A stretch of 64,000 nucleotides of DNA. Origin: Bacillota bacterium (lineage in GTDB: Bacteria; Planctomycetota; UBA8108; UBA1146). The position numbers were made by a program, and so were the translations under genes. Positions 6,149 to 59,719 of the stretch are shown in pieces. The notes beneath the pieces were generated by a model. That model was not told the origin of the DNA. It did not search any database and was given only the letters and a program-made list of their open reading frames with translations. Each line of letters starts with the position of its first letter. The first letter of the stretch is position 1. The stretch spans positions 81,763 to 145,762 of the forward strand of contig QNYK01000062.1 of NCBI GenBank assembly GCA_003973385.1, in the 5' to 3' direction.

Positions 6149-7593
6149 TCCAGGATCGCGATGGCCCGATCGATCCTATCGATCACGTTGTCTCTTCCCA
6201 GCACCATCATCACCTCGATCAGGTCAGGGGAATCACTACGAGAGGTCAATGCGAATCTCAAGGGCATGAAGAGCAACGGCTTCTTCCATTGCTTCTCGGC
6301 GAGCATTGCATCGAGCGCTTCGTTGACGGCCTCTGCTTGAAATGGAAGATCGGATTTCAACAGCGCGGAGGTGGCCTGAAGCGCTTCCAGCGATTGCTCG
6401 GGGCTTCCCTTGCGAGGCACCAGATCTTCTGGCGTTGGAGGCTCTGGAAGATTGAAAAACCAGGTTGTTCTTGGCTCGAATTCCGCCAGCCGAACCATTC
6501 GCTCGACCACCAGTGGCAGCACCGCAGCTGCCTGCTGTGGAGATACCCCTTGCGGGAGGAACCCTTCCTCGTCGATTCGTTGCAGCAACTGGTCGGGGTC
6601 CATCTTGCGAATGTGCATCCCGTTGAGCCAGTCCAGTTTGACCAGATCAAAGACCGGGGCTCCGGTGGAGATCTTCTCGATGTTGAACTCTTGCTGAAAT
6701 CGATCGAGGTCAAAGACCTCTTGCCCATCGGGGGGTGACCACCCCATCAGCGCGAGGAAATTGAGAATCGCCTCCTTCAGGTAACCCTGCTCACGGAACC
6801 AGTCGAGACTGACCGGATTCTTGCGCTTGGAGATCTTAGAATGATCTGCATTTCGCAGCAGCGGCACGTGGAAAAACCCGGGTAATGGGTGCTCCAGAGC
6901 CTGGTAGATCAACACGTGCTTGGGAGTCGAGATCAGCCACTCCTCCGCCCGAATCACGTGAGTGATTCCGAACTCGATATCATCGACCACATTGGCCAGG
7001 TGGTAGGTGGGGAAGCCATCGGTCTTGATCAGCACCTGGTCATCGATTTCGCAGTTGGCGATTCGAATTTCCCCACGAATCTGGTCGACAAAGCAGGTCT
7101 CCCCCTCCACCGGGACTCGCAAGCGGATGACATGGGGCTCCTCTTTGGCGGCTCGCTGGCTGGACTCCACAGCATCCAGATCACGACAGGTACCCGGGTA
7201 GCCGAGCCGCAGCTTGTCCTGCTTCTGCTTTTCTCTCACCTCGGCAAGGGTTTCTGCGCTGCAGAAGCAACGGTAGGCGTTGCCGCTCTCCAGCAGGTGG
7301 TCGACCTTCTGCTGGTAGATGGCGTTGCGCTCACTCTGGCGATAGGGAGCACAGGGGCCACCAAGGTCAGGCCCTTCATCCCAGTCGAGACCGAGCCACC
7401 GCAATGCGTCGAAGATTTTCTGCTCGCTACTGGCCTGGTAGCGGCTGCGATCGGTGTCATCGATGCGCAGCAGGAATTGGCCCCCGGTCTGACGTGCCAG
7501 AGTGCGGTTGAACAGTGCCACATAGGCAGTTCCCACATGAGGATCACCGGTGGGGCTGGGTGCGATTCTCACACGTGCCGGAGTCGAACTCAT
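6136..7593 (-). CDS. gltX: Glutamate--tRNA ligase
   Basis: Class I HIGH motif (PSPTGDPHVGTA), KMSKS variant (KISKRK), overall GluRS layout. 4-nt ATGA overlap with ribE. Confidence 0.9.
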   Translation of the reverse strand: MSSTPARVRIAPSPTGDPHVGTAYVALFNRTLARQTGGQFLLRIDDTDRSRYQASSEQKIFDALRWLGLDWDEGPDLGGPCAPYRQSERNAIYQQKVDHLLESGNAYRCFCSAETLAEVREKQKQDKLRLGYPGTCRDLDAVESSQRAAKEEPHVIRLRVPVEGETCFVDQIRGEIRIANCEIDDQVLIKTDGFPTYHLANVVDDIEFGITHVIRAEEWLISTPKHVLIYQALEHPLPGFFHVPLLRNADHSKISKRKNPVSLDWFREQGYLKEAILNFLALMGWSPPDGQEVFDLDRFQQEFNIEKISTGAPVFDLVKLDWLNGMHIRKMDPDQLLQRIDEEGFLPQGVSPQQAAAVLPLVVERMVRLAEFEPRTTWFFNLPEPPTPEDLVPRKGSPEQSLEALQATSALLKSDLPFQAEAVNEALDAMLAEKQWKKPLLFMPLRFALTSRSDSPDLIEVMMVLGRDNVIDRIDRAIAILECST

Positions 7594-8216
7594 GAGAGTT
7601 CTCCTTGCTGAAGCGACATCAATTCTGCAACCCAGCGGCCGAAGTGGTCCATCTCCAGGTTGATCGAATCTCCCACCGAGCGGCTACCGAGCGATGTGAC
7701 AGCCAGAGTGTGAGGAATCAGTGCCACGGAAAAGCAGCCGACAGATCTGGAAACGACGGTCAGACTGACTCCGTCGACGGTCACGGCGCCCTTCTCGATG
7801 GTTCGAAAGTCCGAGTCAGGTTCATACTCGATGACCCAGAGGGTTTCACCGCTGCCCTCGATCGATCGGATGGTCCCGATGGTATCGACATGGCCGGTGA
7901 CGTAGTGGCCACCGAGACGATCTCCCACCCGCAGTGCTCGCTCGAGATTGACCGGGGATCCGGCCGCACGTTCACCGAGAACCGAGCGTCGCAGGGTCTC
8001 CTCGACCACATCGAAACAGAGATCGCCATCGCCGCACAGGAGAGTCAAGCAGACCCCATCTACGCTGATGCTCTCCCCGGCTTCCAGGTCCGTCCAGGGT
8101 TCTAGTTCGCCGTCGATGGAGGACAATGCCCTGGGAGAGACGCTGAGGCGAACCCCTGAGGCGTTTGTGGCTATTTCCACGATACGGGCACTGCGTTCGA
8201 CGATGCCAGTGAACAA
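7590..8216 (-). CDS. ribE: Riboflavin synthase alpha subunit
   Basis: Canonical MFTGIVE N-terminus and duplicated lumazine-binding halves (GESISVDGVCLT / GAVTVDGVSLT). Confidence 0.9.
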   Translation of the reverse strand: MFTGIVERSARIVEIATNASGVRLSVSPRALSSIDGELEPWTDLEAGESISVDGVCLTLLCGDGDLCFDVVEETLRRSVLGERAAGSPVNLERALRVGDRLGGHYVTGHVDTIGTIRSIEGSGETLWVIEYEPDSDFRTIEKGAVTVDGVSLTVVSRSVGCFSVALIPHTLAVTSLGSRSVGDSINLEMDHFGRWVAELMSLQQGELS

Positions 8217-8411
8217 GGGGCCTCCTGCCTCGAGCGGATGCTACGGTAGCAACGGGTTTGTCGCCACCGAACCGGGGCCGGGGTGCCTGCTCCCGGTGTC
8301 AGTGGCTTTCATCGGCCCAGAAGCGTGTTTCAGGGGAACTTGACCCCCCCTCACAAGCCAGATAATATGTGTCACTTGGAATCGAACCTATCGATGTCGG
8401 GTGACGGGACT

Positions 8412-8486
8412 CTGCGTGCAGTGGATCTGCGTGCAGTGGATCTGCGTGCAGTGGATCTGCGTGCAGTGGATCTGCGTGCAGTGGAG
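8412..8486. repeat. Intergenic perfect tandem direct repeat, 5 x 15 bp (CTGCGTGCAGTGGAT); last unit ends ..GGAG
   Basis: Read directly: ctgcgtgcagtggat repeated head-to-tail five times. Each unit contains the near-palindrome CTGCgtGCAG. It lies in the ~580-bp divergent region between ribE (start 8216, -) and the 8800(+) gene. Confidence 0.9.
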
Positions 8487-8799
8487 CCGTCGACGACCCC
8501 CTCTCTCCCGGAGGAGGTCAGACCTCGAGCGGGACGATTTCCTGAGCAGGGCGACAACTTCCCTGCTTCGTTCTGGAGAACCTTGTGGTCCATGTGTGGT
8601 CAACCATGAGGGACTCATCAATCATAAGGAGTTTCGATTCGGTCGCATCGTGATGGTCGCATGACCATCCATCGTCCCGGGGAGACGGGCCAGTGACCGA
8701 GGAGATGATGCACGGGTCGGCGGCAAGACCGCTGCTCCAGCGAGTACTCTGAACTGTCTTCGGAGCGCTGGGGATCAACCCAAACGGAAGGAACTGGAG

Positions 8800-9651
8800 A
8801 TGAGTGGGCTCGCCAAGTTTTTCGTGGTGATCAATTTCGTCCTGGCACTTCTTTTCCTCGGTGTCAGTGCAACGCTGTTCCAGTCTCAGAAGGACTGGAA
8901 AGGTGCTGCCGAAACAGCCGTGGAGAATGCAGAAGAGACGGTCGCCATGGCGGAGAAGATGAAGGAAACGCTGCAAGGCGTCGTGGATGAGAAGAGCAGG
9001 AATAACGAATCCCTGACGAGAGAAAAGGAACAACTGAGTTCCTCGATCTTGACCCTCCAGAACTCCAATGGAGATCTGCGAAAGAGCGTCGCCCAGCTGG
9101 GCACCAAGATCGATGATCTGGATTCCCGGATAGCCCAGAAAGATGAGCATATCCAGGACAAGGACTCCAACATCGCACGCCTCGAGGAAGAAATCTCTCG
9201 GCTGAGTACGGAGATCGACTCTGCGGGTGACGCCAAGAAACTGGCGGAACGGCTGCGCAACCGCGCGTTACTCGACAAGGAGCAACTGGCTCAGCAGACG
9301 GAAGCCCTCAACAAGGAACTCACCGCACTCAAGGAAGACTATGATGACCAGCAGTTGCTGATCTCCAGGATCGTGGACTCCGGCATCCGGCTTCCCGATA
9401 TCGGTGTCACCACCGCCCCACCCATCGACGGCATGGTCGTCGGTGTTCAGGAGGGGGTTGTGGTGCTCTCCGTCGGAAAAGATGACAACGTTGAGATCGG
9501 CTATGAGTTCACCATCTACGACGGCAACCGATTCATCGGAAAAGTCCAGGTGACCAAGGTCCTCGACGATATGTCCGGCTGCACCATCCTGTTCCAGGAG
9601 GATTCCGGTATTCGTGAGGGTCACAAAGCCTCGACACGGCTGTCCAGCTAG
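8800..9651 (+). CDS. Membrane-anchored coiled-coil protein with a C-terminal beta-rich domain (hypothetical)
   Basis: N-terminal TM helix (FFVVINFVLALLFLGVSATLF). About 170 aa of heptad-like charged sequence (EEISRLSTEIDSAGDAKKLAERLRN...). C-terminal domain GMVVGVQEGVVVLSVGKDDNVEIGYEFTIYDG. Confidence 0.6.
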   Translation: MSGLAKFFVVINFVLALLFLGVSATLFQSQKDWKGAAETAVENAEETVAMAEKMKETLQGVVDEKSRNNESLTREKEQLSSSILTLQNSNGDLRKSVAQLGTKIDDLDSRIAQKDEHIQDKDSNIARLEEEISRLSTEIDSAGDAKKLAERLRNRALLDKEQLAQQTEALNKELTALKEDYDDQQLLISRIVDSGIRLPDIGVTTAPPIDGMVVGVQEGVVVLSVGKDDNVEIGYEFTIYDGNRFIGKVQVTKVLDDMSGCTILFQEDSGIREGHKASTRLSS

Positions 9652-23369: not shown

Positions 23370-24652
23370 GTCACGCCACCAGTTGCAGAGCGCTCAAGTG
23401 CGGCGATCCCTGGCAATTCAGTTCCCTCAAGGAATTCGAGGGCAGCCCCACCTCCGGTAGAGATGTGATGGAAACGATCTGCGATGCCGAGTTGCCGCGC
23501 TGCAGCAGCGCTGTCCCCCCCTCCAACAACGACAAGACCAGGGTGCTCCGCGAGGAAGCATGCCACTGTCGCCGTCCCATGTCGGAATTCCGGAGTTTCG
23601 AAGACTCCGAGCGGACCATTCCAGAAAATGGTCCTGGCTTGTTCGAGTTTCTGGCAGAAGAGGGTGGCCGTCTCCGGACCGATATCGAGCAGCATCATTC
23701 CTTCACCGGGAGTCGACCCCACAACGACGGTCTCGGTCCTGGTCGGTCGAGTCAGTTGATCTCCCGCGATGAAATCGACAGGAAGCACCAACTCCGGACC
23801 CCCGAGCAGTACCTCTCTGACTTCGGAGAGTGCTTCTGGCTCGGTGGCCGAGGCCCCCACATCGACACCGTTGCCCTCCAGCAAGGTATTGGCGAGTCCA
23901 CCACCACAGATGATTCCATCGAGCTGGCCAGAGAGGTGACCGAGAACTCCGAGTTTGTCACGGACCTTCGCACCGCCAGCTACGATCCAGAAGGGACGCT
24001 GAGCATCATCGCGAATCCTCGTCAGTACCTCGATCTCTCGCTCGATCAGGAACCCCGCGTAAGAAGGAAGTAGATCCGCCACGGCATCGACAGAAGCATG
24101 AGAACGGTGGCAGCATCCAAACGCGTCGTTGACGAAATACTGGCAACCGGTGGCCAGCGCTCGGGCAAAATCAGTATCGTTCGCCTTCTCGCCGGGGTCG
24201 AAACGGAGGTTTTCCAGCATCATGACGCCACCGGGCGCCAGTCCATCCAGTTGACGTATCGATTCGGCACCGGCAGGGATCTCGGGGAGATGAAGCACTG
24301 CGGATTGCAACTGCTGTTGCAACGAACTGGCCACCACCGCGGTGGAAAATGCCGGGTCTACAGTTGCAGGTCGTCCCAGATGAGAAATAAGGACGATCCT
24401 GGCACCTGCCCGCTGTAATGCCTTCAGGGATGGCAAGATCGCCTCGACTCGATTGGTATCGGTGACGCCTCCAGAATCGATGGGTAGATTCAGATCCGCA
24501 CGCAACAGCACCGGATCACGAGGTTTCAACCGTGGCAACAAGTCAGCAATGGATCGCAATCTCAACCGCCTTCCAGTAGACGACGAAATCTTGTTGGCGA
24601 GGTCAGCAACCAGCCCTGTACCCGCAAAGGGCCTCGAATCTCGATCCACCAC
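23366..24652 (-). CDS. pgk: Phosphoglycerate kinase
   Basis: RADLNLP, ISHLGRP, GGGDSAAA and the hinge-region pattern. The ORF is about 30 aa longer at the N-terminus than typical, so the start is uncertain. Confidence 0.9.
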   Translation of the reverse strand: MVDRDSRPFAGTGLVADLANKISSSTGRRLRLRSIADLLPRLKPRDPVLLRADLNLPIDSGGVTDTNRVEAILPSLKALQRAGARIVLISHLGRPATVDPAFSTAVVASSLQQQLQSAVLHLPEIPAGAESIRQLDGLAPGGVMMLENLRFDPGEKANDTDFARALATGCQYFVNDAFGCCHRSHASVDAVADLLPSYAGFLIEREIEVLTRIRDDAQRPFWIVAGGAKVRDKLGVLGHLSGQLDGIICGGGLANTLLEGNGVDVGASATEPEALSEVREVLLGGPELVLPVDFIAGDQLTRPTRTETVVVGSTPGEGMMLLDIGPETATLFCQKLEQARTIFWNGPLGVFETPEFRHGTATVACFLAEHPGLVVVGGGDSAAAARQLGIADRFHHISTGGGAALEFLEGTELPGIAALERSATGGVT

Positions 24653-58856: not shown

Positions 58857-59612
58857 TCAGTTGGTTTCTTCCTCGGTATTGACGACTTCCTCGGTATTGG
58901 CGACTTCCTCGGTATTGGCGACTTCCTCCACGGTTTCATCCGTCGCCGCATCGTCTTCGCCCTCTGTTGGCACCACCTCGCCCACGACTTCTGGATCAGA
59001 GACCTCGGCGCCGGAATCTGTCTCCTCAGATGCCTCAGCCTCGATGGGCTCTTCCTCGCTGGGCTCTTCTCCGTCGACCGCATCGGCTGTTTCAGGGGTG
59101 ACTACATCGAAAGTGTCCCCCTCGCTGGCAGCCATCGCGTCCTCGACGGCACCGTCAGGTTTGGGCACAGATTCGGCTTCAGGTTTGGCTTCAGATTCTG
59201 CTTCAGGTTTGGCTTCAGATTCTGCTTCAGGTTTGGCTTCAGATTCTGCTTCAGGTTTGGCCACAGCAACAGCGGCTGCGCGTGCAGCGGCTTCCTTGCG
59301 TTTGGCCATCTCCAGGTCGAGGAAATCCTCCTGGATGACCAGCATCCTCAATACATGCTCGTTGAGCTGGCCATCACTGCGTATCGCAGCAATCGCTCCC
59401 GTGTCTGAAGTGAAGTAGGCGAGGAAATAAACACCTCGCTTGATCCCCTTCACGGGATAGGCAAGCCGTTGTTCCGGCCACCTTTCTGAGTATTCGATGG
59501 TGGCGCCCTGCTGTTCAATCAAGCCCCGGATCTGATTCTCGATCTCGGCCCAATCGGTCGCAGCAGCCGCGGCATCGACGAGGAAAAGTCCCTCGTAAAG
59601 TCGTTCGGTCAA
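58857..59612 (-). CDS. rpsF: 30S ribosomal protein S6 with a ~150-aa acidic repetitive C-terminal extension
   Basis: S6 core (LYEGLFLV..., RLAYPVKG.KRG.YFL). Start proposed at TTG 59610-59612, preceded by a perfect AAGGAG Shine-Dalgarno. The tail contains KPEAESEA x4 and (A/V)NTEEV x3 repeats. Confidence 0.85.
   Translation of the reverse strand: MTERLYEGLFLVDAAAAATDWAEIENQIRGLIEQQGATIEYSERWPEQRLAYPVKGIKRGVYFLAYFTSDTGAIAAIRSDGQLNEHVLRMLVIQEDFLDLEMAKRKEAAARAAAVAVAKPEAESEAKPEAESEAKPEAESEAKPEAESVPKPDGAVEDAMAASEGDTFDVVTPETADAVDGEEPSEEEPIEAEASEETDSGAEVSDPEVVGEVVPTEGEDDAATDETVEEVANTEEVANTEEVVNTEEETN
58871..58930. repeat. 18-bp tandem repeat (~3.3 copies) within the rpsF 3' region (CGACTTCCTCGGTATTGG)
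   Basis: Read directly. Encodes the EEVANT repeats. Confidence 0.8.
59175..59262. repeat. 24-bp tandem repeat x ~3.7 within rpsF (GCTTCAGGTTTGGCTTCAGATTCT)
   Basis: Read directly. Encodes the KPEAESEA repeats. Confidence 0.85.
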
Positions 59613-59719
59613 GATGATCTCCTTAAGATCTGGATCAGCAGCCCCGCTCCCCCGATGACCGTCAGGGAATCTCCGCGAGCGCCGCACCCTGGTGTTACTC
59701 GTTCACTGGTGTTACGCGT

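Follow-up and report, generated by a model that had tools for sequence, protein, structure and literature searches.

The tandem repeat described here lies in a 583-bp intergenic gap (8217 to 8799) of the window, as we call the whole 64,000-nucleotide stretch of DNA that was analyzed. On its left, the gap is bordered by the riboflavin synthase gene ribE (7590 to 8216, minus strand; Pfam Lum_binding, E = 1.5e-40). This gene is preceded by gltX and is transcribed away from the repeat array. The first gene downstream of the array, on the plus strand, encodes a 283-aa membrane-anchored coiled-coil protein (8800 to 9651), and after it come genes for a protein of about 80 aa, mreB, mreC, and PBP2. 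Homologues of the 283-aa protein were found only in uncultured marine Planctomycetota metagenome-assembled genomes (MAGs). In related loci, too, gltX-ribE lies on the minus strand and is followed by a gap of about 500 to 620 bp, beyond which the plus strand carries the coiled-coil gene, the small gene, mreB, and mreC. Every related locus that spans the region in full shows this arrangement, down to 44% protein identity; in L034, at 32% identity the most distant relative retrieved, an extra gene lies between ribE and the coiled-coil gene. One of two public MAGs in which a 71-aa open reading frame is annotated across the array is labeled “Bacillota bacterium” although the locus is planctomycete, and that label is likely a binning or labeling error.

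Between positions 8100 and 8900, the sole promoter-like site is a sigma-70-like TTGACC-N17-TAATAT element on the plus strand (8340 to 8368), which points towards the array and the gene at 8800. The pattern has one match in the 64-kb window against 0.04 expected, and each of the 32 related loci examined retains TTGACC-N16-17-TAnnAT, even at 44% protein identity. The distance from the promoter to the ATG is 370 to 460 nt in 31 of these 32 loci and 279 nt in the remaining one (L053). No terminator-like site was found before the 8800 gene, and the interval holds no conserved ORF. Taken together, conservation of these elements suggests that a long 5′ leader of the coiled-coil/mreBCD operon (8375 to 8799, plus strand, with a presumed transcription start) is transcribed from the 8340-8368 promoter. 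This leader would be about 425 nt in the window, where the array makes it longer than any other in the set, 250 to 400 nt in relatives, and about 250 to 430 nt overall. The first unit of the array begins some 45 nt beyond the −10 element. The array would therefore lie in the leader, where it could not change promoter spacing, and an earlier suggestion, made from the letters alone, that it might affect the 8800 promoter does not fit the position of the only conserved promoter-like element, upstream of the array.

Several parts of the putative leader are strongly conserved. Just 3′ of the hairpin predicted over the array, the block CTCTCTCCCGGAGGAGG (8501 to 8517, plus strand) is invariant in all but its last two bases within the clade of at least 84% protein identity. 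Further downstream, the motif TCCCGGGGAGACGG (8675 to 8688, plus strand) has one exact match in the window; among 19 aligned leaders, CGGGGA at its core does not vary and the remainder of YCYCGGGGAGACGR hardly does. A copy of YCYCGGGGAGACGR with one mismatch, TCTCGGGGAGATGA, occurs at 24280 to 24293, and two matches in the window are at chance level (8 of 100 shuffles). The ribosome-binding region CCCAAACGGAAGGAACTGGAG (8779 to 8799, plus strand) abuts the ATG at 8800 and is nearly invariant in three alignments. In the minimum-free-energy fold of the leader it is paired with positions 8498 to 8508 of a C/U-rich block (8497 to 8509) that takes in the C/U-rich part of CTCTCTCCCGGAGGAGG, which suggests that the block can pair with the ribosome-binding site. 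A leader hairpin, GGCGG...CCGCC, is also conserved and takes a compensatory GACGG...CCGTC form in L043. Relative to L006 and L008, two loci from the nearest other species, the promoter and early leader are 91 to 92% identical and the last 300 nt are 85 to 86% identical, compared with 66 to 86% for the third codon positions of the two flanking genes. This indicates moderate constraint overall, with strongly conserved islands.

A search of Rfam 15 returned nothing credible in 8150 to 8850 at E values up to 10, and the intergenic region was empty at the gathering score. The leaders of eight relatives were likewise without a match at E values up to 1, and known RNA families, including an FMN riboswitch for the divergent ribE, were rejected on this basis. 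No tRNA or tmRNA was found in the region. RNAalifold applied to the 3′ halves of 19 leaders gave a weak consensus (−5.9 kcal/mol), in which 2 of 13 pairs show a compensatory change. Across a clade of marine Planctomycetota, the leader combines a promoter that is strictly conserved with blocks that do not vary (CTCTCTCCCGGAGGAGG, CGGGGAGACG, and the GGCGG/CCGCC hairpin), and the leader at 8340 to 8799, together with its counterparts in L006 to L056, is a candidate for a new cis-regulatory RNA.

The array itself occupies 8411 to 8485 on the plus strand and consists of five perfect head-to-tail copies of TCTGCGTGCAGTGGA, with no mismatch and no indel. Tandem Repeats Finder (TRF) reports a period of 15, 5.0 copies, 100% matches, 0% indels, and a score of 150, which ranks second in the 64-kb window; it is the sole TRF row with five perfect copies. 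The sequence-only reading had set the five copies in the register CTGCGTGCAGTGGAT (8412 to 8486). The count of five perfect units stands in the register of TCTGCGTGCAGTGGA, but in the register first proposed only four are perfect, the fifth ending in G instead of T. Its description of inverted arms was accurate, as CTGC-GT-GCAG is present inside every unit, and so was its statement that this is not a CRISPR array, since a new unit begins every 15 bp, which is the length of the unit itself, and no room is left for spacers. GGATCT spans each junction between units and, along with the CTGC and GCAG arms, makes the array as a whole quasi-palindromic.

Elsewhere in the 64-kb window, no further copy of the 15-mer was found with zero or one mismatch. 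Neither 596 Gb of species-representative genomes nor the metagenome collection contained a 22-mer that spans the junction, which rules out a dispersed repeat or mobile element. The repeat is thus confined to a single locus, with units head to tail and without spacers and with a copy number that varies between like flanks, all of which are features of a variable-number tandem repeat (VNTR). An exact 20-mer of the left flank, ATGTCGGGTGACGGGACTCT, does occur in an unrelated contig (L057, JAAHTH010000300.1, 834 to 853), where ARAGORN found no tRNA in the region of the match; given the size of the collection, this is most likely a chance match. The window holds other tandem repeats, of 18 nt (3.4 copies; 58868 to 58928) and 24 nt (4.5 copies; 59155 to 59261), within a minus-strand ORF (58857 to 59687; 276 aa), whose acidic C-terminal tail contains the EEVANT and AKPEAESE repeats that they encode. 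By eye, the product looks like ribosomal protein S6. We also considered a Dam/GATC epigenetic switch, as the unit junction creates a GATC site, yet GATC is 3.2-fold overrepresented across the window (781 observed versus 241 expected) and this candidate was rejected. CGATCG is likewise overrepresented (63 observed, 19 expected).

Copy number differs between assemblies of the same species. Among assemblies that are 96 to 99.9% identical to the window by blastn and have the same flanks, the array is present in alleles of 5, 4, 2, 2 (diverged), and 1 copies. A JGI assembly (L002, 3300021977; 99.9% identity) has five copies and an ENA assembly (L003; 99.6%) has four. L058 (98 to 98.7%) has two, the second of which carries a single nucleotide polymorphism and reads CAATGGA, and L059 (96.4 to 97.3%) has two diverged units of 14 and 15 nt, TCTGCTCGCAATAC followed by TCTGCTGGCAATGGA. 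In L001 (TREM19-1_SAMN09060591 scaffold_2), a run of N falls exactly at the array (approximately 2520 to 2620), with a second copy of the left flank beyond it; the right-hand contig, which is 99.9% identical to the window, repeats that flank and then has a single variant unit, TCTGGGTGCGGTGGA. This gap with its duplicated flank is a scaffolding artifact arising from allele heterogeneity at the repeat. Two Logan contigs start with exactly two units, having broken inside the array, as a k = 31 graph should when a repeat has at least three copies.

Besides the independent JGI assembly, the five-copy form is represented by two NCBI MAG records in which the 71-aa ORF runs across five units. The array is therefore real and polymorphic, and it gains or loses whole units over very little evolutionary time. 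The comparison of copy number between related strains that the sequence-only reading had proposed thus bears out its idea of recent expansion. Because the arrays differ between assemblies in whole units (75, 60, and 30 nt), slippage is the mechanism to which these differences point.

Other species have different sequence at this position. In the nearest of them (L006 to L012; 96 to 97% protein identity and 80 to 88% DNA identity) the place of the array is taken by one nonrepeated segment of 15 to 16 nt, TCTTCCCCGTGTTGA or TCTCCCCCTGCGTTGA, around which about 44 nt on the left and about 40 nt on the right are almost invariant. GGA is absent from the nonrepeated segment that sister species have at the array position. 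Related loci have TCTTCCCCGTGTTGA, TCTCCCCCTGCGTTGA, or TCTGCTGGCAATGGA in place of the unit, with invariant sequence on both sides, and no other part of the early leader is so poorly conserved. A comparison by eye of the window with L006 shows differences at 7 of 15 apex positions, and the third codon positions of the flanking genes are 73 to 86% identical between the same two loci. Such divergence would fit a mutational hotspot, but it would also fit diversifying selection.

At the array position, a sister clade (84 to 86% protein identity) carries another tandem repeat, whose 11-nt unit, ATGTCAGTGGA, is present in one to three copies. It is located about 70 to 100 nt downstream of the promoter in L013 and L040 (two copies each), L041 (three), L042 (degenerate), and L056 (one). 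The core CAGTGGA is common to this unit and the 15-nt unit, and the 11-nt repeat arose independently of the 15-nt array. That two lineages have expanded repeats sharing CAGTGGA at one site could reflect selection, either for greater hairpin length or for repetition of a motif, and not neutrality. In more distant clades, parts of the 5′ leader fold into hairpins, although homology to the hairpin of the array was not established for them.

On the plus strand, RNA from 8396 to 8497 is predicted to fold into a hairpin in which the flanks form a closing stem and the array forms a long apical helix. The closing stem pairs GUCG (8396 to 8399) with CGAC (8494 to 8497), UGACGG (8402 to 8407) with CCGUCG (8487 to 8492), and CUC (8410 to 8412) with GAG (8484 to 8486). 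The minimum-free-energy fold has −57.6 kcal/mol on the plus strand (z = −3.5), versus −37.9 kcal/mol on the minus strand; G·U pairs, which make up 11 of the 44, account for the lower stability of the minus-strand RNA. Predicted stability rises steadily with copy number, from −14 kcal/mol at zero units to −58 kcal/mol at five. The unit being quasi-palindromic (CTGC/GCAG plus GGATCT), added units simply lengthen the RNA hairpin. Single-stranded DNA from either strand is also predicted to fold (−25 and −20 kcal/mol), which would be compatible with hairpin-assisted slippage.

The closing stem is present in the predicted folds of six of the seven alleles with window-type flanks; the fold of L006 differs. 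In the clade with the 11-nt repeat, an equivalent stem is formed by GAUGGAACC with GGUUCUAUC. In an alignment of 10 distinct sequences, the five stem pairs shared by all are 94% paired, and controls with a slid register were clearly worse (20 to 72% paired). One of these pairs occurs as C-G, U-G, and U-A and another as G-C and G-U. However, a shuffle control for covariation was not significant, the observed score being reached by 165 of 500 shuffles, with few independent changes to draw on. Overall, the predicted closing stem is plausible, short of proven.

Among the explanations that we weighed, it is very improbable that the repeat was collapsed or inflated during assembly and that the polymorphism is unreal. 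Short-read graph assemblies do break at the array, and single copy numbers are consensus calls, but the five-copy form recurs in independent assemblies and the four-, two-, and one-copy forms lie within contigs with intact flanks. The array, at 75 bp, is also shorter than a typical read. The sequence-only reading had named an artifact as one way in which it could fail, and a coding sequence as another, and the second fares no better. An ORF that reads LRAVD five times extends over 8394 to 8609 on the plus strand (71 aa, or 108 aa from a GTG at 8283). With a unit length divisible by three, a frame open over 71 to 108 codons, and annotation of the 71-aa version as a hypothetical protein in two public MAG records (RTZ90390.1 and RUA09786.1), a real small (LRAVD)5 protein might be supposed. 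Yet among 5.8 billion proteins the ORF matched only itself, a Pfam search gave no match, and gene callers left the gap empty in L001 to L003. Alleles whose inserts measure 29 or 16 nt are shifted out of frame, L006 and L007 lose the frame through a 1-nt deletion just downstream, and the 11-nt unit of the sister clade destroys it at the array position. In addition, the longer version of the ORF begins upstream of the conserved promoter. With no conserved frame or protein, we judge the ORF to be spurious, a protein-coding role for it is scarcely credible, and the array is noncoding, as had been supposed.

Improbable too, if less drastically so, is the proposal that the array is a series of protein-binding sites, whether for a DNA-binding regulator that sits on the near-palindrome CTGCGTGCAG as a roadblock downstream of the promoter or for an RNA-binding protein of the CsrA type that is sequestered by a sponge. 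Each unit does hold a GGA and an inverted repeat with 4+4 arms, the RNA can be drawn as four GCAG-UGGAU-CUGC hairpins, and the CAGTGGA motif recurs in the 11-nt repeat of the sister clade. However, a conserved regulator would need a conserved site, and the unit is not conserved in the closest relatives, in which both flanks are nearly invariant; this disfavors the array of regulator-binding sites that had been put forward from the sequence. A period of 15 bp also sets successive sites on opposite faces of the DNA helix. As for a sponge, RNA folded as beads on a string reaches −28.4 kcal/mol versus −57.6 kcal/mol for the single long hairpin, in which every GGA of the array is predicted to be paired (unpaired probability of about 0). 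A CsrA sponge of the CsrB/RsmZ type is disfavored by this difference in stability of 29 kcal/mol along with the lack of conservation. Among the genes next to the locus, no csrA or regulator gene was identified.

An effect of copy number on expression deserves more attention, even if we consider it rather unlikely that the array is a contingency-like repeat whose variability is selected because it alters how the leader folds, how stable the mRNA is, or how well the coiled-coil/mreBCD operon is translated. Each unit would lengthen and stabilize the hairpin directly 5′ of the C/U-rich block (8497 to 8509) that may pair with the ribosome-binding site. The array lies between the conserved promoter and the start codon, the predicted stability of the hairpin climbs steadily with each unit from 0 to 5, positions 8498 to 8508 are paired with the ribosome-binding site in the minimum-free-energy leader fold, and repeats have expanded independently at the same apex in two lineages. 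Against this, sister species do well with a single unit, and the contact between the C/U-rich block and the ribosome-binding site is a fold prediction that comes without covariation because both partners are invariant. Classical contingency loci have units of 1 to 8 nt and belong to surface or host-interaction genes, not to a cell-shape operon; here, the unit has 15 nt and the genes encode a coiled-coil protein, MreB, MreC, and PBP2. There is precedent for such an arrangement in the AGAT repeats of the Moraxella uspA2 5′ untranslated region (UTR) and in the TAACTGA repeats found in Beggiatoaceae leaders (PMC4679880). A stronger version, in which the apex is a selected “length dial” by which two lineages, with units of 15 and 11 nt that both contain CAGUGGA, tune expression of the cell-shape operon by way of a longer or multi-motif hairpin, strikes us as a long shot.

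We consider it most probable, at about 0.62, and most economical that the array is a VNTR (minisatellite) that has expanded in the permissive apex of a leader hairpin and is neutral or at most mildly modulates expression. Under this explanation, a segment of about 15 nt would have been tandemly duplicated, after which slipped-strand mispairing in replication would have added and removed copies. The apex near the 5′ end of the leader would be the sole part of the leader region that tolerates any sequence and any length, and repeats would accumulate there because of that tolerance. Units exposed in single-stranded DNA could form hairpins, which should favor further slippage, and the leader that carries them would be transcribed from the 8340-8368 promoter towards the coiled-coil/mreB-mreC-PBP2 operon. 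Both the slippage mechanism and the neutral or mild effect of copy number are inferred.

The array resembles known systems to different degrees. Like the bacterial VNTRs that serve as minisatellite loci in MLVA strain typing, it has head-to-tail, near-identical units in the size range of about 10 to 100 bp, a unique locus, conserved flanks, and a copy number that varies between strains. Unlike typical MLVA loci, it belongs to an uncultured marine planctomycete, is placed at the predicted hairpin apex of a conserved mRNA leader, and is quasi-palindromic and self-folding. Structured RNAs have variable or expansion segments in which hairpin tips vary in length between lineages. In these, as in the predicted hairpin of the array, change is confined to the apex of a helix while the base is conserved, but the array changes by tandem repetition, on a within-species time scale, and in an uncharacterized leader. 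CRISPR arrays share with it short, partly palindromic direct repeats; the array differs in having no spacers, a unit of 15 bp instead of 23 to 47 bp, and no adjacent cas genes.

The uspA repeats of Moraxella catarrhalis likewise vary between strains and lie in an untranslated leader downstream of the promoter (PMC4679880). In uspA1, a poly-G repeat lies upstream of the gene between the promoter and the start codon, and in the 5′ UTR of uspA2, AGAT repeats range from 6 to 23 copies between strains and their copy number affects expression (PMC4679880). However, the Moraxella units are 1 to 4 nt long, the genes encode surface proteins of a pathogen, and the effect on expression is experimental, whereas the array has a 15-nt unit, precedes a cell-shape operon, and is known from sequence. 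In the Beggiatoaceae, TAACTGA heptamers form direct repeats in intergenic regions and are proposed to act after transcription (PMC4679880). Like the array, they are short direct repeats of perfect sequence that lie in the 5′ leaders of a bacterium from the environment (PMC4679880), but they occur at about 170 loci per genome with a shared unit and the 15-bp array occurs at a single locus, with no further copy in the window or the collections searched.

The array is a textbook case of repeat turnover and is useful as a strain marker for an uncultured deep-sea planctomycete population. If its copy number were shown to change expression, contingency-type regulation would extend to the cell-shape genes, a housekeeping operon, of a free-living marine bacterium. 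If the apex were indeed a length dial, it would represent a heritable and reversible expression switch in free-living marine planctomycetes, of a kind so far documented mainly in pathogens. The more promising lead than the array is the conserved leader of about 400 nt that precedes the mreBCD-associated operon across the clade and matches no described RNA family.
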